Shown here: positions 1,692-35,514 of the stretch, in pieces | Layout of the letters: each line of letters starts with the position of its first letter | Numbering within the stretch: the stretch's first letter is position 1 | NCBI GenBank assembly: GCA_043756665.1 | Contig: JAYUQR010000056.1 | Location: forward strand, 1-35,999 | Direction: 5' to 3' | Length of the DNA stretch: 35,999 nt | From: Candidatus Altimarinota bacterium | GTDB lineage: Bacteria; Patescibacteriota; Gracilibacteria; BD1-5; UBA2023 | Made by a program: the position numbers and the translations under genes | The notes under the pieces: generated by a model | Databases searched by the model: none | The model's input: the letters and a program-made list of their open reading frames with translations, nothing else | What the model was told of the DNA's origin: nothing

Positions 1692-1770
1692 TGGAGCGGG
1701 GAAACGGGTTCGAACCGTCACACCCAAGGGTTGAAGCCTTAGTACACTCACTCTTTTATGTTACCCCCGC
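1692..1770 (-). tRNA. tRNA-Gly with anticodon UCA (UGA decoder), CCA encoded
   Basis: Reverse complement GCGGGGG...TAAGG-CTTCAAC-CCTTG-GGTGT-GACGG-TTCGAAC-CCGTT-TCCCCGC-T-CCA. The loop is C-U-UCA-A-C; the anticodon is the complement of 1732-1734. It has a 5-nt variable loop and a 7-bp acceptor stem. G1:C72, C2:G71, G3:C70, U73 and C35 are bacterial glycine identity elements. The D-arm is atypical and I could not number it cleanly. Confidence 0.8.
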
Positions 1771-3746: not shown

Positions 3747-4259
3747 ATGAAGCTCACTACGCGTGGTTTTACCCTCGTCGAACTCATGATCGTTATCGCG
3801 ATCATCGGTATCCTTGCTGCTGCCCTCTTCCCATCTATGACTGCCTATCTCAAGCGTTCTCGTGATGCTGCTCGTGTCTCAGGTACAAAGGATATATCCA
3901 CTGCTGCTGGTGCTTTCTTTACTGATAGAGAACGTTATCCTGATTCTACAAGTGTCGCTCCGATGGGTTGTGTTGGAAATTCTCTTACTACTGGATTTTC
4001 TACTGTCTATCTTCCAAAAGGTATTCCTGTTGACCCAACCTCAACCAATGATAATGGCTGTGGTAGTAATGGAAATTACGGTTATGGTTCAGGTAAAAAT
4101 GCAACTTCATTAGCACCACAGTTTTTCTTGACTACTAAGTTCGAAAACGTCAATGGTGGAAATACTGGTTCTATAGCTTGATACACTGGAGCTAATAGAA
4201 CCACTGGTCTCGGAACTCCTACTAAGGGAGCGGGTGCATTCTATGTTCTCTCGAATTAG
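3747..4259 (+). CDS. Type IV pilin / pseudopilin-like protein, paralog 1
   Basis: MKLTTRG|FTLVELMIVIAIIGILAA is a class III (prepilin) signal with G|F cleavage and Glu+5. One in-frame UGA (4179-4181) aligns with GGA (5017-5019) in paralog 2. TAG at 4257-4259. 170 aa. Shared C-terminus GTPTKGAGAFYVLSN. Confidence 0.85.
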
Positions 4260-4590
4260 TTCTGATACCCGATTTGAACTATTATCTCGAATTCATTGAT
4301 ACTACTCATTGAGTAAGAAGCATATGATCCTCTCGTATTCCGAAAAGAACACAAGAAAAGTCATACGCTTTTTCCTGGTGCGTTATATCAACTATAGATC
4401 CAGATGCTCGTGCAGCATACTCAGGATATTCGTGGATACGATTGATGGATTATAGTTGACAGAAATATAAAGTTCTGATACTCTCGAGTGACCATTAGAC
4501 ATACAGAAAAGAAAAAGTCTCTATATTTCTCCTTTTTTTTTCTGTAATACCTGTATAATGCCCACGTCTTTATTTTTTTTCTTCCCCCTT

Positions 4591-5097
4591 ATGAAGCTCA
4601 CTACTCGTGGTTTTACCCTCGTCGAACTCATGATCGTTATCGCGATTATCGGTATCCTTGCCGCTGCACTCTTCCCATCTATGACAGCTTACCTCAAGCG
4701 TTCACGTGACGCTGCTCGTGTCTCAGGTACAAAAGATATTTCTACTGCTGCAGGCGCATTTTTTACTGATAGAGAAAGATATCCTGATTCTGAACCAACC
4801 ACTGGTTGTGCTGGAAGTTCTACTGCTACCGGGTTTTCTACAGTCTATCTCCCTAAGGGTATTCCTGTAGATAATACTTCAACCAATAATAATGGTTGTG
4901 GACCGAACGGAAGATATGGCTATGGTTCTGGTAATAATTCAACCGGCAATGTGCCACAATTTTTCCTTACTTCCCAGTTCGAAAACGTCAATGGTGGAAA
5001 TACTGGTTCTATATTCGGATATACTGGGCAAAGTGTAATAATCAATCTCGGAACTCCTACTAAGGGAGCAGGTGCTTTCTACGTTCTCTCGAATTAA
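4591..5097 (+). CDS. Type IV pilin / pseudopilin-like protein, paralog 2
   Basis: Same prepilin N-terminus. ATG 4591 chosen by homology to paralog 1 (the track start 4558 is upstream in frame). 168 aa. Confidence 0.85.
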   Translation: MKLTTRGFTLVELMIVIAIIGILAAALFPSMTAYLKRSRDAARVSGTKDISTAAGAFFTDRERYPDSEPTTGCAGSSTATGFSTVYLPKGIPVDNTSTNNNGCGPNGRYGYGSGNNSTGNVPQFFLTSQFENVNGGNTGSIFGYTGQSVIINLGTPTKGAGAFYVLSN

Positions 5098-5149: not shown

Positions 5150-5653
5150 ATGAAATTTCCTATTCGTGGGTTTACCCTCGTCGAACTCATGATCGTTATC
5201 GCGATTATCGGCATCCTTGCCGCTGCCCTCTATCCAGCGATCACGAACTATATCGGACGATGAAGAGATGCACAGAGAGTAGCGCATCTCAAGGATATAG
5301 GAACGGCATTGACGAACTTTGCGAGTGATAATAAAGAAGACTATCCTGCCACTCTGGCTGATTGTGACCTCTCCGGTTCCCTTATGGTATTTCTGAATAA
5401 AGAACTCAAGGACCCTTTTCCAACGAGAAATCATGGATGTGGTCCGAATGGATTTTATGGATATGGTACAGGGGTGATCAATGTGACGCAATATTATGGT
5501 GTCAGTGCTGATCTCGAGACAGAGTATGGTGGATACTGGGCTGCATCGGGCTCGAATAATCCATTTACGGGAACACTTGATGCAGGGGATATCAATAACC
5601 TGAAGTTCAATCTCTGAAAAGGGAAAGGTCCACTGTATGTACTGTCTCAGTAG
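5150..5653 (+). CDS. Type IV pilin / pseudopilin-like protein, paralog 3 (divergent)
   Basis: MKFPIRG|FTLVELMIVIAIIGILAAALYP. Joins track ORFs 5072-5263 and 5309-5617 through UGA at 5261-5263 and 5615-5617. Ends ...GPLYVLSQ, TAG 5651-5653. 167 aa. Confidence 0.8.
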
Positions 5654-7801: not shown

Positions 7802-8806
7802 ATGAAAAAAAATATTGATATTCTCCTCTCCGTCATCGATAACTATGGTGATATGGGATTCGCATGTGAGCTCCTGATCGGACTCGAGAGAATATATCCA
7901 TGAGTATTTATATACCATATCTGGACGGATGATATCTGAGTCGTTACGAGTTTTTTCGAGAAAAATAGCGATTCACTCCCTGAGTATTATGTGAATATGT
8001 TAGAAAAATTTGGTGAGGATAATCAATCATCATTCTGTATTTCACTCTTTCATGGCTTTATTCCAGAGAGACGATTTTTCCAGAATCCTTCGATGATCCT
8101 CAGAATAGACTATCTCTCTCTCGATCGTGTATGGATGAGGAATCATGAAAAAGAGCATATCGGTTCCACAGAAGGCAGGAAAATTATCGAAATTATACCT
8201 TCGCCATTTCCACAGTGATGAGGAATATTCCCTTGTCCGATATGAAAATATACACGCCAGGATATCGCAGACATGTTTTCCTTGGATTGTTCGAAAGAAT
8301 GGATTTCGATTTTTTCCTATCCTCAGACACTGAGTGCAAGCATAGATTTTACGATTATTCCACACGATCGAGAAATACTCCTTCTCGGAGTTCCCACAGA
8401 AATACAGAAACAGATTACATATAAAAATATCCACTATCTTCCCTTTCTCCCACTGGATCTCTTTCATCATGTTCTTGCTCATAGTCTCTGGAGTATCATC
8501 CGTGGTGAACTCAGTTGGATGAATATGGTGGCTCTTGAGAAGCCATTTTTCTGGGATATGTACAAGTCTCTCGGTGGGTTTCCAGAAGAGCAGAGTCGAC
8601 AGTTTCTCGAACTATTTGAGGTATCATCGAATTATCGAGGCATCCATAATCATATCAATACGGGATTCCCGTGAAAATTCTCTCTTCACGAGTGTGAATA
8701 TTTGCTCATGTCCTGAAAATGAAATATGAGCCTGAAAAAAAAGAAACCGAAGGATCTCATCCATGAAGTAAAAAAATTTATTGACAGTTTCTATTTTTCC
8801 CTATAA
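7802..8806 (+). CDS. earP: EarP, EF-P arginine rhamnosyltransferase (DUF2331 family)
   Basis: MKKNIDILLSVIDNYGDMGFACELL matches the EarP N-terminal signature (DIFCxVVDNYGDIGVxWRLA). RIDYLSLDRVW matches LEYLSAEEW; ISIFSYP matches ISLFAYE. HYLPFLPLDLFHHVL...IIRGELSWMNMVALEKPFFWDMY matches LPF..QDDYDRLLW..D.NFVRGEDSF.RA.WA.RP..WHIY. Joins track ORFs 7991-8218 and 8273-8674 through about 8 UGA codons. TAA 8804-8806. Confidence 0.8.
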
Positions 8807-8850
8807 TCACAGGGCTTCGCCACAGTGCAGAGGCATAGTCTCAAAAACAT

Positions 8851-8927
8851 GCCAATGTAGCTCAGCTGGTTAGAGCGCGGGACTCATAAGCCCGAGGTCG
8901 GCGGTTCAAGCCCGCCCATTGGCACCA
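8851..8927 (+). tRNA. tRNA with anticodon CAU (elongator Met or lysidine-type Ile2), CCA encoded
   Basis: GCCAATG-TA-GCTC-AGCTGGTTA-GAGC-G-CGGGA-CTCATAA-GCCCG-AGGTC-GGCGG-TTCAAGC-CCGCC-CATTGGC-A-CCA. The G1:C72 pair excludes an initiator. Confidence 0.85.
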
Positions 8928-8933
8928 TCATAT

Positions 8934-9008
8934 CGCGGAGTAGAGCAGTGGTAGCTCGCAAGGCTCATAACCTTGAGGTCGTATGTTCGATTCATACCTC
9001 CGCAACCA
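8934..9008 (+). tRNA. Initiator tRNA-fMet (CAU), CCA encoded
   Basis: CGCGGAG...CAAGG-CTCATAA-CCTTG...CTCCGCA-A-CCA. The C1 x A72 mismatch at the top of the acceptor stem is the bacterial initiator hallmark. Only two G:C pairs close the anticodon loop instead of the usual three. Confidence 0.75.
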
Positions 9009-28254: not shown

Positions 28255-30120
28255 ATGCGCAACAAACGCTTTCAAAGTAATACCGGAAATCCTCCGAGTA
28301 AATCAGGATCCCCTCGAAGTTTTTTCGACTGAGGAAAAAAAATTCAAAGCAATCTCCGTCCTGGGGATGCATTTCTCTATGAGGATTCATTTAAGCCAAA
28401 ACGATCCTACCCATTTCTCACACCGACTCAGGCACTCAAGAAATACCTCTGAGAAAAAGAAGAGCGTACCAAGCCACTGGGTAAAGAAACCCTCCGTGTC
28501 ATACCATTCGGTGGTATGGAACAAGTCGGACTCAACTGTATGGGATTCGAGTATGAGGATGAGATGATCATCGTCGATATGGGGATCCAGTTTCCCGATC
28601 AGTACCAGTTCGGTATCAACTCCTCCATCCCCGACCTCTCCTACTGTCGTGGAAAGAAAGTGGTATGAGCCTGTATCACCCACGGACATATCGATCATAT
28701 CGGATGAGTCTATTACCTCATGGAACAGCTCGGGCGGAGTACTCCACTCTATGCCACTCCTATGGCATATGAACTCATCAAGCTCAAGCAAGCAGATATG
28801 GGTGCTACTCTCCCGAATATCCGCGAATATACTCGCTATGAGCCGATCCAGATCGGGAAATATTTCCAGATCACACCGTTTGTGGTCGATCACTCGATCC
28901 CTGACTCAGTCGGACTCCTCATCGAGACTCCGGTTGGGAGATTTGTCCATACGGGTGACTGGAAATTCGATAAGTCTCCACTTCCGAACCGCCCATCCAC
29001 GAACTATGAGTACCTCGAGACCCTCGGAAAACGTGGGGTTCGTGCCCTCTTTTCTGACTCAACCAATGCACATCTCCTCGGTTCCTCTATCTCTGAATCT
29101 GCCGTCGTCCACTCGATGGAGGATATCTTCGAGAAGGCATCAGGACGCGTGATCACGGCAACTTTCTCCTCGATCATCGATCGTGTCATGCTCATCATCT
29201 CGACCGCTGAGAAATACAACCGAAAAATCGTCCTCCTCGGTCGATCGATGAATAACTATATCGATATCGCGATCAAGCTCGGCTATGTCCGACCAAAACC
29301 TGGAACGATCATCACCATGGAAGATGCAGCGAGACTCCCTGATAACCAAGTCACTATCTGTTGTACTGGAGCACAAGGAGAACGTTATGCAGCGCTGATG
29401 CGTATCGTCACGGGTGAGTCTCGAGACACCACACTGAAGGCCGATGATACGATCATATTCTCATCGTCAGTGATCCCTGGGAATGAGCGCGCAGTGCAGT
29501 GACTCTTCGACCTTATCACTCAGCAGTGACCGAAGATCCACCACTACAAGGAGTCAGAGATCCATGCTGGATGACATGCGAAGGAAGAGGATACCAAAAA
29601 AATGATCACCCTCATCCAGCCTGAGTACTATATTCCTATCTATGGATATACCCATATGCTCCGTGGAAATACACGAAATGCCTATGATCTCGGATATGCG
29701 AAAGATAAGGTTATCGTGATGAAAAATGGAAAAATCCTCGAGTTTACGAAAGATGAAGTGCGAGAAACGGATGAATATGTTTCGAAGAAGCTCATGACTG
29801 TCGATGGACGGATGGTTGGGTATACGGCAGAACGAGAACTCCATGATCGATTCCAGATCTCATCTCAGTGAGTCCTCGTTATCGGTATCGTGAAGAAAAA
29901 TGCCGGTTTCGCCATCAAGTATCAGACGGTCGGACTCCCGAGTGTTGATAAGGTACCGACACTTGAAAAATCTCTCGAAATGAGTATAAAGGATATACTC
30001 CGTGATCTCTCGAAGTTCAAGGATGCAGAATCATTCGTCACTCACGTCGAACGCAAAGCGTGCGATATCTGTCTCTATGAGATCGGGAAAGAACCGAAGG
30101 TAGTCGTGATAGTACAGTAA
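28255..30120 (+). CDS. rnj: Ribonuclease J
   Basis: Frame 1 joins track ORFs 28720-29502, 29602-29871 and 29890-30120 plus the N-terminal part. LRVIPFGGMEQVGLNCMGFEY..MIIVDMGIQFP; ITHGHIDHIG(G); HSIPDS; HTGDWKFD; LFSDSTNA; TFSSIIDR; GAQGE; SVIPGNE; IHAG(G)HA; PIYGYTHM. 621 aa including a basic ~80-aa N-terminal extension. Confidence 0.9.
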
Positions 30121-30338: not shown

Positions 30339-30379
30339 TTCTTTCTCATCGCTCGTGAAGCGAGAATGACAAGTTGGTA

Positions 30380-30550
30380 TTAATGATGATCATGTCATCC
30401 ACCGCCACCTCACTTCAGCGCTTCCTTCATCGGCCCTGCACCGCTCGCGAGTCCGAAAAAACTCCCGATCATCGATGTGATACCGAGATCTATACTGGAT
30501 CCTCCTGATTTTTTCCCACTATCACTGTGGTCGTCGTGTCCTCCTGACAT
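30380..30550 (-). CDS. Small Gly/His/Ser-rich protein (56 aa), hypothetical
   Basis: ATG 30550: MSGGHDDHSDSGKKSGGSSIDLGITSMIGSFFGLASGAGPMKEALK(G)GGGG(G)HDHH. TAA is the complement of 30380-30382. Confidence 0.35.
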
Positions 30551-30649
30551 ATGTGTAGAAATTAAGAAATAACTTGAGTATTCTATACTATTTATTTTCT
30601 CCTGTCAATGTCGACTTTTCTTTTTCCTCGAAAAGTGGAGTACTAAAAT

Positions 30650-30677
30650 TTGCAATTTCTCTCGTTTTTTCTATAAT
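30650..30677 (+). promoter_or_regulatory. Sigma70-like promoter for tRNA-Ser(GCU)
   Basis: TTGCAA (30650-30655), 16-nt spacer, TATAAT (30672-30677), 10 nt upstream of the tRNA 5' end. Confidence 0.55.
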
Positions 30678-30687
30678 CCGCGAGCAC

Positions 30688-30780
30688 GGTGGGTTACTCA
30701 AGTGGCTGAAGAGGCGGGTTTGCTAAACCTGTAGGGTGCCGCAAGGTGCCGCGAGGGTTCGAATCCCTCATCCACCGCCA
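30688..30780 (+). tRNA. tRNA-Ser, anticodon GCU, CCA encoded
   Basis: GGTGGGT-TA-CTCAAGTGGCTGAAGAG-G-CGGGT-TTGCTAA-ACCTG-(long variable arm TAGGGTGCCGCAAGGTGCCGC)-GAGGG-TTCGAAT-CCCTC-ATCCACC-G-CCA. Confidence 0.9.
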
Positions 30781-30893
30781 TTGTTTCAATGTACAATTTA
30801 CAAATAATAAATTACAATTTCCGGATTGTTCACTATACATTGTTCACTGTTCATTGTTTTTGGGGGTATAGCTCAGTGGTTAGAGCAGTCGGC

Positions 30894-31256
30894 TTAAGGA
30901 TTTTTTTCTAAATCAAGCTCAGGATAATGTTCTTCTGCATGACAATTATGACAAAGGAGTATGCAGGATCTTAACTCATTTTCAATACGTTCGAATGTTC
31001 TATTCGAAAGGGATCGAACATCGAGTTTGAATTCTTTTTTCTGAGGGTCAGTGTGATGAAATGATAATGCACCAAGATTCTTCTTGTATCTGCATCTCAT
31101 GCATCAACCTCAGAAACGCTCAATAAGTTCACGTTTTCTTTTGAATCCTCGAGCTTTCTGAGATGGGTAACTCTGATGTTTCTTGTTTTTGCAGATGATC
31201 GAACAGAATAATTTCTGTTTTCCTGAAAGGATATTTCAGCATATGATACATTTCAT
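30894..31256 (-). CDS. HNH homing endonuclease encoded antisense within the intron
   Basis: ATG 31256: MKCIIC(G)NILSGKQKLFCSIICKNKK (zinc ribbon)...(G)G(G)CMRCRYKK...LSFHHTDPQKKEFKLD...ENELRSCILLCHNCHAEEH (HNH motif). 120 aa, three in-frame UGA. The TAA stop (complement of 30894-30896) abuts the 5' splice site. Confidence 0.8.
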
Positions 31257-31487
31257 AACTGAAAATATAGTAAGATATGAAAAATTTGCAAGGGCGGTTA
31301 TGAGAGTAATCTCATAATGTTTATCTGTCAAATTCGGGGAAACCTTCATCTCAATCGAGATATGGCAATCCCGAGCCAAGCCTGTAATAAGGAAGGTGTA
31401 GAGACTAGATGGCAGACATCCTGAAAAGGATGAAGGGATAGTCCAGACTCCAAACTCGAAAGGGGTAGTGAAAACTATAGCAGTACG
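30895..31487 (+). mobile_element. Group I intron (IC3-like, Azoarcus/cyanobacterial tRNA-intron type) in the anticodon loop, 593 nt
   Basis: The 5' exon ends in U and the intron ends in G (31487). The core at 31320-31487 contains gtcaaattcggggaaacc, tatggcaatcccgagccaagcc and gaaggtgtagagactagatggca. As I recall them, these match the conserved J3/4-P4, P6 and J6/7-P7 segments of the Azoarcus tRNA-Ile intron. P2-like hairpin ttatgaga-gtaa-tctcataa and P8-like hairpin atcct-gaaa-aggat. I could not identify P1/IGS. Confidence 0.75.
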
Positions 31488-33141
31488 CATAACCGATTGG
31501 TCCCTGGTTCAAGTCCAGGTACCCCCACCATAATGTAAATCATTCAGTAAGAGCATCAGTTTTAATGTAACTGATGCTCTTTTCTGTTAGTTCCAACGTA
31601 AAAATATACCCATGTTGTAATTTATTGAACTCTATAAACGGCAAAAACCAATCATGAAGATTGGCTTGCAGTTTCTGATCCATTAATATCCAGTTCCAAC
31701 CAAGAGAACGAAAAATCATTTTCTTGGTTTCTAGATCTCAATCTCTGAATCTTTCGGAAGCATATTTTGAGAAATTGATAGTATCTATGATGAGTTCAGT
31801 CCAGTCTATATTTTCTTTTTCTATCTCAGTTTTTCGTATTTGTAGTAATTCTATTTCTTTTTCTAGCTCTAGCCTCATTCTATCATATTCTTTATAGTTA
31901 CTCTCGAACTCTCAAGCGAGCCTCATGTGTAAGAGTCTCGTTTTTTTCTTTTCAGCAGATTCAAGAGTATTTGTAATGTTTGTTTTTATACTTTCCCTGC
32001 CAGTAGATTCCTCACTATATTTTCGCTTGAGTACTTCTTTTGACCAGTTGAAGAACTCTGGAATGATTTCAATCTCACTTAGAATTTCTTCTATTTGTTT
32101 TTCAACTCATTCGTTTGAGACAACTTTCCTTTGATCGCAATGAAATTCAGTTGTATTTTTTTTGTGTGTGCAGTGGTAATATGTGTATTCTTTCTCTTTT
32201 CCAGTAGAACGTATGTTCTTGTACTTCTTGACTGCTGTAACCATACAACCACAGCATCAGCAACGAATATTCCCAGTATAGGGGAATGTTAATATAGAAG
32301 GCCTTTCTCTATATACCTTATTTGGAGATCCACTTGTATGAGAGATGAGCTTTTGAGCTTTCTCGAATTCTTCCCATGTAATCATAGGCTCGTGAGATCA
32401 CTTGATTGTATTTTTATTATACTTCATGTATCCTGTATAGAAAGGATTCCTGAACATTGCATATAGTGTAGATATTGCGAGTTCTCTACGAGCCTTATAT
32501 TTTACATTTACTGTGGAGTATCACCACTCCGTATTGGCAGTATGTGCTATCTGAGAAGGAGCATAACATCATGTGAGTAGCATATCCCACATCTTTCTTA
32601 CCAACTGGAACTTTTCTGGATCAGAAGCAATAGTTCTTGTAATAGGGTCATTAATATAGCCTTGAGGCGCCTTTGCAGGAAAGTGACCTTTCTCAATCTT
32701 ACTTTTGAGTCATCTTCTTACATTTTTAGAGAGATCAAGAATATACTGATTTGCCATACCTGTTTCAACGCTGAAGATGAGTCATGAATCTTCGGGATGA
32801 TACACTCTATCGCTTGTTATAATTCGCTTTATTTTGTGCCTCTGAAGCATATATTGAACACTTCCTGCATCTACTGGGTTACGAGTAAGTCTATCAAGCT
32901 TCCAACAGAGAATACCATCAATGCTTCATTCTTCTATTTCAGCACACATTTCATAGAATGCTTTCCTTACTCACGGAGCCTTTGCTGATTTTTCTTCAGT
33001 GTAGATTTTCACAATTTCTATGCCATCTTCGACTGCTTTCCTTTTCCAGTATGTAATCTGGTCATCAATTGACTGAACTTGTCTATCTTCTCTTTCAGAA
33101 GACTTCCGTGCATAAAGCACAAATCGGGTAGCTTTTTCCAT
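31405..33141 (-). CDS. Large serine recombinase (resolvase domain, recombinase domain, zinc ribbon, coiled coil)
   Basis: ATG 33141: MEKATRFVLYARKSSEREDRQVQSIDDQ (catalytic Ser region)...IDGILCWKLDRLTRN...GHFPAKAPQGY...AMFRNPFYTGYM...GNIRC(G)CCGCMV...YYHCTHKK...FHC, then a coiled coil. I verified every codon. There are 11 internal UGA codons. A 12th UGA at 31540-31542 is the only stop-like codon before the tRNA. The first in-frame TAA/TAG is TAG 31405-31407, so the code-25 ORF is 578 aa, or 533 aa if it ends at that UGA. Confidence 0.8.
31549..31584 (+). terminator. Rho-independent terminator of the split tRNA
   Basis: aagagcatcagtt (31549-31561) / aactgatgctctt (31569-31581) form a 13-bp perfect stem, followed by tttt. 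Confidence 0.65.
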
Positions 33142-33201
33142 AATAAAATTGTTAAGTAATGTAAAGTAATATATAAGGTACTATTGATAAGTACATAATA
33201 T

Positions 33202-35340
33202 TTATGTAAGTCAAACATCAGCTATCGGGCTTATATGCATATTTCTTCAAATATTTTCTATAGTGATGAGTCCAGCATTAGCGAGAGTTGGCTCTATTTC
33301 TTGTCTCCAAAGAGCATCCGACATTGGTCTACCATAAACTTCACTATGTTTTTGTATAATTTTCTTGCGGGTGACTCATATTGCATCCTCTGGTCAGAAA
33401 TAATCTTCCCTTTGCTTGTTGTACTCTATGTAGGCAGGAACAAGTATCTCCATATACAATCGCATTGTATATGGAGATACATTGAACTTTTGACCAGGAG
33501 AGATCTTCTGCCATAGGCTCCATGCTTCCTCAATATCGGTATCTTCGGCATATAAAGTTGCTCATGTTCTTTTTCGATGAGGGAGATTAAGGAGAGCGAA
33601 AGCTCTAATGAATCACATGAATCGGTCTATGTCTCGTTGGTCCCGAGGTATACAGCCCTGTTTTCATTTTCACTCCAGAAAGAATCGATCTACTTTCTCA
33701 GGATCGAGAAAGTCTATATCGTCTATATTGGCATCTTTTATATGCTGAATTCTTTCTTTGAGAATATTTCTTTCAGGATCATTTATAATTGATTCTTTTA
33801 GCTTTTTATCTGCACCACTAAGTCTAATTTTATGCTGGACAGTATCATAGATCTTCTCGCTATGAGTTTCGGGAGAGATAAGTAGAAAACGAGTTGCTTC
33901 TTGTTCATCGAGTTGTGTCGATGCTGTACAGAATACAGCTACAGGATATCCATAAATAATAATGTTTTTTGTTTGGTTTCATCATTGACCACTTTTATCT
34001 GTTATTTTACAGGTCAGAATTGGTTTATCATGTGAGAGAAGAGGCCTTAATTTTCAAAGAAGTTCTGTTCTAGGCTGATCAATAAATATGATAATTTTTC
34101 TATCGAGATGTATGTGTTTCTCATTTTTCTCTTTATCATACTCTCCATTTTCATGGAAGAACGCACTTTGAGATACATAAAGTAATTCCATAAGACTATC
34201 TTTTGGGAAAAGTTGAGCTATCTGTAAGGGTATGTATGATTTACCAGATGAAGACGGAGCATTTAGCATTATATTTATCTGTGAGTCCCTCGTAAATGCT
34301 GTAAGCATAGCCAGAAATACGATTAATTTATTCGTGTCATCATGTTTAATAGTAAGTGAAAGTATTCTTATAATGTCTACACTCGTCATCGGAGCAAATT
34401 TTGATGAATCTGTACCCCGTATGAGCTCACTATATAAAGTCATCATTTCATCGCTAGTTCCACCATTTTTTATAAAGTCAGACACATCTTTCCCCATTTC
34501 TAGTGGAAGTGAGATTCTATATATCTCTTTTTCAGGAAAACGAGCAATAAGTCGGTCAATAAGTCTAGTGGCTCATTTATTTCAGGCATCATCATTATCA
34601 AAACAGATATATATTTTAGAGAGCGATGCAAGACTCTCTAACCATTCTTCTTTGAATGTTCCTACTCATCCCGTAGAGCTTATTCACATAAGTCCCTCCC
34701 GAGAAAGTATCATCTGATCGAATTCTCACTCGCAGATCACTATATAATCATCATTATTTTGCATGTTTTCTCATCCATAGAGCATCGTTTCGTTTCAAGA
34801 TGGGTAAAATATATACTTATTTCCTTCCGATCAGTAGGGGTCACGTCTGAGCTTAAAAAATTGAAATACTCATTTTATATCTCGAATTGGTATTGTTATC
34901 CAGTTTGATCCATAGAAAGAGCCATATCCGATTTGCCTTTCTTTTATGAGTTCTTCCGTAATACCTCGTTCATTCAAGTATTCACGGATGTTTGGTGGTA
35001 ATGACTTCTGATACTTTGAGATATCCTTTTCTGTTAGAGTTATCTTCTTTTTTTGGACTTCTGGATTTCTTGGACTCTTCGGATTTGTGTATCATTCAAG
35101 TGGATATTCTCAAGGATCATCTCAAAAATGTTTGAGAAGCGTGATCCAGTTTCATTGTGCGAGACATTTTTTGCACTGGTAGAGTCCTGTAGACTCTTCG
35201 ATATAAAGATGAGCTTCCTTGCCTCGACTGTCTTTGTCGCATTCATTGAATACGCAATGTGCTGCAATTTCTTTGCCAGTCTTATAGTGAAAGATTCATT
35301 TTTTATCCAAATAAGTGGGGATCGTTGTAGTAGGTAACAT
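33202..35340 (-). CDS. Primase-helicase: CHC2 zinc finger, TOPRIM primase and P-loop NTPase fusion
   Basis: ATG 35340, TAA 33202-33204, 712 aa, every codon checked, 25 in-frame UGA. Zinc finger AAHCVFNECDKDS...LYQCKKCLAQ(G)NW. TOPRIM IVICE(G)EFDQMIL...YICFDNDDA(G)NK(G)A, with UGA on the invariant Gly of EGxxD and DxDxAG. Walker A MLNAPSSSGKSY and Walker B-like KIIIFIDQP. Contains track ORF 34054-34497. Track ORFs 35040-35267 and 35053-35337 are out-of-frame or antisense shadows. Confidence 0.85.
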
Positions 35341-35357
35341 AAAAGTAGTAATTAAAT

Positions 35358-35498
35358 TTATAAAATGGAACGAGAGACAGTTTCCATCAGTAGAATGAGT
35401 TTAACGGCTTGTTCATGAGCATCTTCAGTACTGATTTCGACTTGAAATAAGCTCTTGTAAATGCTTTGATATTCGCGGATGTCTTGCTCGGTTAACAT
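35358..35498 (-). CDS. Small protein (46 aa), hypothetical, upstream of the primase-helicase
   Basis: ATG 35498: MLTEQDIREYQSIYKSLFQVEISTEDAHEQAVKLILLMETVSRSIL. TAA is the complement of 35358-35360. Same strand as the primase gene and 17 nt upstream of it. Confidence 0.35.
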   Translation of the reverse strand: MLTEQDIREYQSIYKSLFQVEISTEDAHEQAVKLILLMETVSRSIL

Positions 35499-35514
35499 AC
35501 TAGTAGAAACAAAA

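Follow-up and report, generated by a model that had tools for sequence, protein, structure and literature searches.

Since 1992, group I introns have been known to interrupt the anticodon loops of bacterial tRNA genes, among them tRNA-Ile(CAU) (PMC13168695, PMC1995217). Bacteria in which the tRNA-Ile2 gene that was found is split by a group I intron have been documented for Azoarcus (PMC13168695) and by tRNAscan-SE 2.0, which reported 36 genomes in which such introns hide an fMet or Ile2 tRNA gene (PMC8450103). For the candidate phyla radiation (CPR), tRNAs with group I introns have been mentioned in passing (PMC8172020). The one tRNA-intron endonuclease that has been characterised, I-Ssp6803I, is a PD-(D/E)XK enzyme encoded on the sense strand of a tRNA-fMet intron (PMC1995217). 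Antisense endonuclease genes have been described for nuclear ribosomal DNA (rDNA) introns (PMC9548176). For antisense HNH genes in tRNA-Ile2 introns we found no description in the open-access literature, which is weak evidence of absence. Here we analyse a stretch of 35,999 nt from a Candidatus Altimarinota bacterium (contig JAYUQR010000056.1), called the window in the following. With a probability of about 0.8, it contains the tRNA-Ile2(CAU) gene of a Gracilibacteria species using genetic code 25, in which a mobile group I intron (IC3 type) with an antisense HNH endonuclease gene is inserted between U33 and C34.

An earlier reading of the letters of the window (the sequence-only reading) had proposed two tRNA halves with a 593 nt insert between U33 and C34. 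ARAGORN folded the joined exons to a 76 nt cloverleaf with anticodon CAU. The closest syntenic Gracilibacteria genome (L123), which has an RNase J with 95% amino acid identity to that of the window, also contains a tRNA-Ser gene and a further tRNA gene following RNase J. This second tRNA gene is uninterrupted and 100% identical to the joined exons of the window. By blastn, positions 30352-30894 of the window corresponded to positions 8228-8773 of L123, and positions 31488-31530 to positions 8774-8816. Because the empty allele aligns base for base, the register is unambiguous and the insert comprises exactly positions 30895-31487. U is the last exon base (30894) and also the first intron base, G is the last intron base (31487), and the exon-U/intron-G rule is satisfied by the U33/C34 register alone. 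The insertion proposed earlier is thus demonstrated to the base. The junction of the intron-less tRNA-Ile2 gene reads GAGCAGTCGGCT followed by CATAACCGATTGGTC, and GAGCAGTCGGCTCATAACCGATTGGTC is the intron-less allele of the L123 type. Shifting the register by 1-2 nt would give tRNA-Ile(UAU); these variants were rejected, since the U/G rule fails for them and the junction is fixed by the L123 allele.

The tRNA body was 91.2% identical to E. coli tRNA-Ile (anticodon CAT) over 57 nt (nt 8-64), which was the best match in E. coli. The split tRNA has a G1-C72 pair and the anticodon stem GUCGG/CCGAU, while the initiator-type tRNAs of our survey (see below) start with CGCGGGG and have a C1×A72 mismatch. 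The sequence supports an elongator body similar to tRNA-Ile2 without initiator features, as the sequence-only reading had guessed. Two other tRNAs with anticodon CAU lie in tandem in the window, at 8851-8927 and 8934-9008 (+ strand), and neither is Ile2-like. The tRNA at 8934-9008 is of the initiator type, with the C1×A72 mismatch. The tRNA at 8851-8927 is presumed, by exclusion, to be the elongator tRNA-Met; its best matches in E. coli were tRNA-Thr and tRNA-Ile(GAU).

A tRNA scan in default mode called no gene at 30862-31530. In this mode, ARAGORN missed CAU tRNA genes split between U33 and C34 altogether. In its intron mode, applied to the survey loci L001-L120 and the window, introns of such genes were mislabelled as lying after nt 36 of tRNA-Leu, -Thr, -Ser or -Val, because the first three intron bases were taken as the anticodon. 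For the window, the resulting tRNA-Leu(UAA) was excluded by the intron-terminal U, the short variable loop and the empty allele of L123.

The Rfam covariance model (CM) Intron_gpI (RF00028) matched positions 31277-31468 on the + strand over the full model length with 78.9 bits (E 1.2e-18; gathering score 50 bits), and the earlier assignment to the group I introns was thereby confirmed. The helices of the window (Table 1) were mapped on an alignment of 37 introns of its own class. P4, P6 and P7 were invariant and 100% paired. The pairs of P3 were likewise invariant and 100% paired, except for the outermost pair A31330-U31410, which is formed in 9 of the 37 introns. P2, P5a, P6a, P8, P9 and P9a were 78-99% paired, with compensatory double changes at nearly every pair. 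Overall, pairing in the core helices amounted to 94-100%. These results demonstrated the homology of the ribozyme and its covarying structure. The 22 nt core segment AAGGTGTAGAGACTAGAYGGCA (J6/7-P7-P3) was present in more than 120 species-representative genomes. Both AAGGTGTAGAGACTAGAYGGCA and GTCAAATTCGG are common to the window intron and to Azoarcus-type introns from the same scan, and both kinds of intron lie in a tRNA anticodon loop. These core segments and the anticodon-loop location support the Azoarcus/cyanobacterial tRNA-intron type, in agreement with the sequence-only reading, and the intron is probably a member of the IC3 subgroup.

The same reading had found no convincing pairing of P1 with an internal guide sequence. 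Such a pairing is present: the guide at 31292-31297 forms the pairs G31292·U30895, G31293·U33 (30894), G31294-C32, C31295-G31 and G31297-C29. It is located about 400 nt downstream of the 5' splice site because the open reading frame (ORF) sits in the P1 loop. About 60 homologues have GGGCU(G) at the guide position, which pairs with the first intron base and with U33, C32, G31, G30 and C29 of the exon, and P1 is plainly visible in relatives lacking an ORF. The sequence GGGCGG is common to the clade of the window, which includes L124, L128 and L131. L071 and L109 have GGGCAG, likewise mismatched at the position of exon G30. The guide covaries with the exon end: exons ending in GGCU occur with GGGCU, and exons ending in CAU (class C, Azoarcus type) with GUG.

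The first 13-17 intron bases are complementary to the bases just before the guide and form the P1 extension. In 25 class A introns (defined below) 161 of 200 positions were complementary, compared to 100 ± 8 (maximum 127) with permuted partners. At the end of the P1 extension a conserved motif with the consensus CUAAGU...GAUAUG is found, which may be taken, from its sequence, to resemble the 11 nt tetraloop receptor. Beyond this motif, introns lacking an ORF have a short hairpin, and long introns have approximately 340 nt in its place. In the window, L124, L128 and L131, the 3' strand of P2 (CUCAUAA) has the same sequence as C32-A38, the anticodon loop after ligation. The sequence GUUAUG (31297-31302) is a perfect complement to the start of the 3' exon, CAUAAC. 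A canonical P10 would require this sequence on the other side of the guide, and the complementarity may be due to chance or to an alternative pairing.

The 5' part of the intron contains, on the opposite strand, a gene for a protein of 120 aa, which had been correctly recognised as an HNH endonuclease. HNH families of PHROG were matched with E values of 8.6e-18, 1e-17 and 2e-13; no significant Pfam or NCBIfam family was found for the protein. The HNH motif of the zinc-finger type (C52, C55, H67, H68, N85, C102, N104, C105, H106 and H110) and an N-terminal zinc module (C3, C6, C18 and C22) are invariant in 16 homologues. The comparison with the HNH protein of L131 gave a synonymous divergence (dS) of 1.29, which is near saturation, a non-synonymous divergence (dN) of 0.126 and a dN/dS ratio of 0.10. 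On this evidence from aligned codons the HNH protein is intact and under purifying selection. Structure was addressed with an AlphaFold 2 model of the homologue P0006, not of the window protein itself (mean predicted local distance difference test score 92). The top Foldseek matches of P0006 in the Protein Data Bank (PDB) were all HNH proteins (4h9d, Cap5, 9qgx, T4 endonuclease VII and the HNH domain of Cas9), with weak scores (E ≥ 0.15; template modelling score 0.3-0.5).

The stop codon of the gene does not merely abut the 5' splice site, as had been stated, but overlaps it: TAA is complementary to U33, U1 and A2, with its third base opposite U33 of the exon. Such an overlap was seen in 8 of 14 homologues, where the stop codon is TAA if the first intron base is U and TGA if it is C. 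The complement of the CUAAGU motif encodes the C-terminal L-[DE]-L of the HNH protein, and this stretch is thereby dual-coded. A longer ORF of 220 aa under code 25 (30894-31556) was rejected as gene model: the homologues all start with M-x(1-5)-CxxC, and a promoter-like element is located just upstream of 31256. The -10 hexamer of this element lies 7 nt before the ATG. A TAnnnT hexamer precedes the start codon in all 14 introns with HNH gene, at a distance of 6 nt in 13 of them and of 7 nt in the window, often with a TGn extension; for L061 the count starts from another in-frame ATG, which lies three codons before the one chosen by the script. The fixed spacing between the -10 hexamer and the start suggests that the HNH mRNA would be leaderless or nearly so, with transcription starting at or close to the ATG.

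The sequence-only reading had noted three in-frame UGA codons, one of them in C-x-x-C-G, and had taken them as an adaptation of the endonuclease to the code of the host. The codons were confirmed (codons 7, 49 and 51). The reassignment is genome-wide and not a feature of this gene only, and the UGA codons of the HNH gene simply mirror host codon usage. When UGA was read as a sense codon, the total length of long ORFs in the window increased from 4,880 to 22,897 aa, and every long ORF examined in the window contained in-frame TGA. Codon 49 of the window gene and codon 50 of the L131 gene align with an invariant or nearly invariant GG, and codon 7 of the window gene with the predominant Gly of CxxCG. 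Database copies of the HNH protein that were translated with code 4 have W at these Gly positions. UGA as Trp (code 4) was rejected, because Gly is invariant or predominant at the positions of UGA and G1C2G3/U73 of the tRNA(UCA) are Gly-like (Table 1); this tRNA is presumed, from its sequence features, to decode UGA as Gly. Since the UGA codons fall on conserved glycines, UGA is read as Gly and the HNH gene relies on the host code. The relatives of the RNase J are all from metagenome-assembled genomes of Gracilibacteria, and judged by this the window is chromosomal DNA of a Gracilibacteria species using code 25. Public gene calls of the HNH gene in recoded genomes are either N-terminally over-extended translations of 199-204 aa with code 4 and W for Gly, or 68 aa fragments made with code 11 that end at TGA; P0001, P0002, P0064, P0066 and P0067 are such miscalled proteins.

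To see how far this architecture is distributed, introns retrieved with the 22 nt core were surveyed and their splice sites re-derived by the U/G rule. In 68 loci and the window a CAU tRNA is split at the junction GGCU/CAUAACC (U33/C34; the slash marks the insertion site). About 20 betaproteobacterial loci have the Azoarcus-type junction CAU/AAUCC and introns of 188-223 nt, and the remaining introns with this core lie in other tRNAs and have various forms. The introns between U33 and C34 fell into two classes. Class A (38 loci including the window) has an Ile2-type tRNA body starting with GGGCCCA; its introns measure 206-385 nt without ORF and 593-651 nt with the antisense HNH gene, which is intact in 14 loci including the window and degenerate in 2. 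Class B (32 loci) is found in initiator tRNAs starting with CGCGGGG and having C1×A72; its introns measure 193-267 nt without ORF and 625-652 nt with a sense gene for a homologue of I-Ssp6803I (E 4.5e-49 to PDB 2OST), which is confined to the initiator-tRNA class of the survey. Sense genes of this type were observed in L012, L049, L060, L073, L081 and L101, and degenerate ones in L078 and L110. These introns belong to tRNA-fMet genes of Planctomycetes, Omnitrophota and CPR, and the ORF starts at about intron nt 3-6. It uses the same site in the P1 loop as the HNH gene of the tRNA-Ile2 introns, but encodes another enzyme in the opposite orientation.

The antisense HNH architecture was present in at least 13 other genomes from several phyla, with hosts that include Bdellovibrionales, Moraniibacteria, Anaerolineae/Chloroflexia, Peregrinibacteria and Gracilibacteria. 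The locus is therefore less unusual than had been claimed, the more so as introns in tRNA-Ile2 were already documented and UGA follows host usage. A protein search gave 75 HNH clusters; every named one is annotated as "hypothetical protein", and almost none has a Pfam match. Four of five loci that were picked by the HNH protein alone had an adjoining group I intron on the opposite strand. None of 43 viral contigs with the same ribozyme core (IMG/VR, L164-L206) contained the antisense HNH gene. The viral cores are mostly located in tRNA-Leu(UAA) after U34 or in CAU tRNAs after U36, and L187 has a 660 nt intron in a viral tRNA-Leu with a sense ORF of another kind (174 aa).

An intron-less allele, which the sequence-only reading had suggested to look for in related genomes, was found in L123 and in others. 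The window RNase J (28255-30120) retrieved 41 Gracilibacteria loci, and the order at the site is RNase J, tRNA-Ser, tRNA-Ile2. Besides the window, the syntenic tRNA-Ile2 site in related Gracilibacteria was empty in 22 cases, contained an intron without ORF in two (L124 and L128) and an intron with HNH gene in one (L131). The introns of L124 and L128 keep remnants of the C-terminal HNH codons. This demonstrated presence/absence polymorphism, in which one site is either empty or filled by an intron with or without ORF, is the pattern that would be expected of a homing cycle. The uninterrupted 37 nt target was unchanged in at least 120 genomes.

Taken together, the following course of events is proposed. 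The tRNA gene would be transcribed from its own promoter into a pre-tRNA of about 670 nt. C29-U33 of the exon end would pair with the guide GGCGG (31293-31297) to form P1, with a U33·G31293 wobble at the splice site, and P1 would run into the long P1 extension, the distal loop of which carries the inserted DNA of about 340 nt. The P3-P9 core would bind guanosine and cut after U33, and omega-G31487 would serve exon ligation. The product of this predicted guanosine-dependent self-splicing would be the 76 nt tRNA, which would read AUA after modification of C34 to lysidine. On the opposite strand the inserted DNA would encode the zinc-finger HNH endonuclease of 120 aa, and a sigma-70-type promoter inside the intron would give rise to an mRNA with little or no leader, in which UGA is read as Gly. 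The enzyme would presumably be specific for intron-less tRNA-Ile2 alleles and nick or cut them, and repair would copy the intron in.

Several observations weigh against this interpretation. We infer splicing, the ligated tRNA and the transcription start from the DNA. The 36 kb in view are part of a genome that may encode a second tRNA-Ile2 or a tRNA-Ile(UAU) elsewhere. P1 of the window clade contains the mismatch G31296×G30, and the P1 extension of the window has three mismatches more than that of the ORF-less relative L124. A P10 was sought in the window and none was convincing; C34-G31292 is the only pair that can form, at a position that is variable among relatives. As many group I introns do without P10 or have only a very short one, we do not treat its lack as disqualifying for the group I assignment. 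The profile evidence for the HNH protein is divided, since PHROG matched clearly and the Pfam family HNH (PF01844) reached 14.5 bits, which is under its cut-off of 21.4. Searches of PDB by sequence (phmmer and profile) and by fold gave no significant match. The -10 hexamer in the window has no TG extension and is spaced by 7 nt rather than 6.

The weak P1 and the extra mismatches in its extension would also fit a dead tRNA gene that is poorly spliced, with AUA being read by a tRNA from outside the 36 kb. This is very improbable: the exons match the functional-looking L123 allele at every base, the core fits the family consensus at every invariant helix, and the guide GGCGG is found in four species of the clade, even in introns without ORF. 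A mismatch at the same position is tolerated in L071 and L109, and the other CAU tRNAs of the window (initiator type at 8934, presumed elongator at 8851) are not Ile2-like. A second possibility concerns mobility. The intron may splice and no longer move, with an HNH protein that is inactive in homing or is kept as nicking nuclease, repair factor or splicing helper; the distribution would then reflect vertical descent and losses. The divergence between the window and L131 (ribozyme 178 of 206 positions identical, HNH gene 79% nt identity) is similar to that of the hosts (RNase J 86% aa identity), which fits vertical inheritance, and the small zinc-finger HNH proteins nearest by fold or sequence are nicking enzymes (4h9d, 9qgx). 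We nevertheless consider this unlikely in view of the dN/dS ratio of 0.10 and the full conservation of catalytic residues and zinc ligands, the constant position of the HNH gene within the intron across distant phyla, and the empty, ORF-less and ORF-containing alleles among close relatives, which are a signature of ongoing gain and loss.

It is hardly credible that the HNH gene is an independent free-standing selfish gene, lodged in the intron loop and aimed at another site. A homologue with 53% identity (P0059, L332, reverse complement, 1501-1985) does stand alone in an AT-rich genome; a reduced initiator-like tRNA(CAU) without interruption lies 52 nt away, and L332 showed no detectable group I ribozyme. 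However, even P0059 adjoins a CAU tRNA gene, and all other copies examined lie in the P1 loop of an intron between U33 and C34 of tRNA(CAU), in the same orientation. Their last codons overlap with the P1 extension and the splice site, which points to a long co-evolution with the ribozyme. The locus L332 may show the endonuclease gene in a state before invasion or after loss. A mobile intron with a homing endonuclease is the reading that we prefer.

Two further readings, which we consider rather unlikely, reach beyond simple homing. According to the first, expression of the HNH gene and maturation of the tRNA would be mutually antagonistic, as the predicted leaderless antisense transcript would span the 5' splice site, P1 and the 5' exon of the tRNA and could act by convergent transcription or by RNA-RNA pairing; if so, a selfish gene would be wired to an essential AUA-decoding tRNA. 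According to the second, UGA(Gly) at conserved glycines would tie the endonuclease to hosts with code 25, while the ribozyme would stay transferable, and the genetic code would be a barrier to only half of a mobile element.

Table 1. Coordinates of the features at the split tRNA-Ile2 locus and of the tRNA(UCA) in the window
Feature	Position	Strand	Basis
tRNA-Ile2(CAU) 5' exon, nt 1-33, last base U33	30862-30894	+	identical to intron-less allele of L123; resembles the CAU tRNA-Ile of E. coli
Group I intron, 593 nt, first nt U30895, last nt omega-G31487	30895-31487	+	Rfam; insertion relative to empty allele
tRNA-Ile2 3' exon, C34 to CCA	31488-31530	+	ARAGORN fold; L123 allele
Promoter-like site upstream of split tRNA, TGTACA-17-TACAAT	30790-30818	+	consensus match only
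Terminator-like hairpin and T-run, 19 nt past tRNA CCA end	31549-31581	+	signal scan
P1 extension 5' strand, GGAUUUUUUU	30898-30907	+	imperfect pairing with 31280-31289; complement encodes C-terminal HNH residues
CUAAAU, 5' half of conserved motif	30908-30913	+	consensus CUAAGU...GAUAUG at end of P1 extension
GAUAUG, 3' half of conserved motif	31274-31279	+	flanks ORF insertion together with 30908-30913
P1 extension 3' strand, AAAAAUUUGC	31280-31289	+	complementarity with 30898-30907
Internal guide sequence GGGCGG (P1 3' strand)	31292-31297	+	conserved position directly 5' of P2
P2 hairpin, UUAUGAGA-GUAA-UCUCAUAA	31298-31317	+	97% paired; compensatory changes at 8 of 8 pairs (37 homologues)
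Catalytic core	31323-31477	+	CM alignment; covariation in 37 introns
P3	31324-31330/31410-31416	+	CM alignment
P4	31334-31339/31369-31374	+	CM alignment
P5	31343-31344/31364-31365	+	CM alignment
P5a	31348-31352/31357-31361	+	CM alignment
P6	31375-31377/31395-31397	+	CM alignment
P6a	31381-31383/31390-31392	+	CM alignment
P7	31403-31407/31439-31443	+	CM alignment
P8	31417-31422/31427-31432	+	CM alignment
P9	31455-31457/31462-31464	+	CM alignment
P9a	31466-31469/31474-31477	+	CM alignment
HNH gene, 120 aa; ATG 31256-31254; TGA(Gly) codons 7, 49, 51; TAA 30896-30894	30894-31256	-	ORF scan, PHROG, motif, dN/dS
Promoter-like site of HNH gene; -35 TTGCAA 31291-31286, 16 nt spacer, -10 TATATT 31269-31264	31264-31291	-	promoter scan
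tRNA(UCA), G1-C72, C2-G71, G3-C70, U73 (Gly-like)	1692-1770	-	tRNA scan

Downstream of the split tRNA gene a large serine recombinase with Resolvase, Recombinase and Zn-ribbon domains is encoded (33141 downwards, - strand) together with a Toprim primase-like gene (35340-33202, - strand); this pair (31405-35499) begins 4 nt past the tRNA CCA end. Read with code 25, the recombinase ORF stays open down to 31405 and covers, in antisense, the terminator, the 3' exon of the tRNA and 83 nt of intron sequence; if TGA were a stop codon, the ORF would close at 31540-31542. A related recombinase/primase pair follows the intron-less tRNA-Ile2 in L129 (8411-13318) and the HNH-containing one in L131 (9101-9323), and is absent in L123. 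The pair is probably an integrative element targeting the 3' end of tRNA-Ile2. Elsewhere in the window, three tandem ORFs on the + strand (3747-4259, 4558-5097 and 5150-5653) have a common type IV pilin-like N-terminus (MKLTTRGFTLVELMIVIAIIGILAAALFP...) and look like an array of pilin paralogues.

In its mechanism the intron is an ordinary mobile one of group I; as a selfish element it is a textbook case, in a form that is widespread but unannotated. What is new is the architecture: the HNH family, the antisense location in the P1 loop, the site between U33 and C34 of tRNA-Ile2, the apparently leaderless expression, the dual coding with P1 and the adaptation to code 25. Bacterial tRNA introns with an antisense endonuclease gene form a large family that spans several phyla, and the locus is one of its members. 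As default tRNA finders do not see the split genes, genomes of CPR, Chloroflexota, Bdellovibrionales and others appear to be without tRNA-Ile2, and records of the HNH protein are limited to "hypothetical protein" entries or, where the wrong genetic code was applied, to ORFs that are wrongly extended or cut short. Sister introns at one and the same GGCU/CAUAACC site have their P1 loop occupied by two unrelated nuclease families, HNH in antisense and PD-(D/E)XK in sense orientation. The UGA-Gly codons at catalytically irrelevant but conserved glycines of a mobile gene are direct evidence of its residence in, and dependence on, a recoded host. With 120 aa and a target of 25-30 bp that is identical in at least 120 genomes, the very small predicted sequence-specific HNH enzyme is a possible tool. 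The introns could also provide a simple prokaryotic model for the expression of antisense intron genes, an open question in nuclear rDNA introns (PMC9548176).

Among the known systems, the intron in tRNA-Ile(CAU) of Azoarcus sp. BH72 (IC3; Reinhold-Hurek and Shub 1992; PMC13168695) has the same type of host gene and the same compact ribozyme family. The 22 nt J6/7-P7-P3 segment is common to both, and Azoarcus-type introns of 204-205 nt were retrieved with it. In both cases the tRNA depends on self-splicing, which for the window is predicted from sequence. The Azoarcus type is inserted after U36 (CAU/AA) and uses the guide GUG, whereas the window intron is inserted after U33 (GGCU/CAU) and uses GGCGG. 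Azoarcus-type introns measure 188-223 nt with a short P1 and no ORF, compared to 593 nt and a long P1 extension holding a gene in the window. The intron in tRNA-fMet of Synechocystis PCC 6803 that encodes I-Ssp6803I (Bonocora and Shub 2001; PMC1995217; PDB 2OST) is similar in size (655 nt), and the introns of our survey with I-Ssp6803I homologues share the site between U33 and C34, the context GGCU/CAUAACC and the location of the ORF in the P1 loop. I-Ssp6803I differs by its initiator tRNA host, its PD-(D/E)XK fold and a sense gene starting at about intron nt 3-6, while the window has tRNA-Ile2, HNH and an antisense gene with its own promoter-like site.

The phage homing endonucleases I-HmuI, I-TevIII and I-PfoP3I (PMC3428280, PMC2988022) are, like the window protein, HNH enzymes encoded in group I introns that presumably nick or cut the intron-less allele. 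The phage genes are located on the sense strand of introns in protein-coding phage genes, in contrast to the antisense location in a tRNA gene. The window protein is also much smaller, of the zinc-finger type, and has an extra N-terminal CxxC...CxxxC module. The gene orientation opposite to the ribozyme and, by prediction, the internal promoter are shared with the antisense His-Cys box endonuclease genes of nuclear rDNA introns (Dir.S956-2, Dsq.L2066; PMC9548176). The latter are eukaryotic, belong to the His-Cys family, lie in P9.2 or P2 and involve RNA polymerase II, polyadenylation and spliceosomal introns, whereas the window gene is bacterial, belongs to the HNH family, lies in the P1 loop and has a sigma-70-like promoter and an apparently leaderless mRNA.

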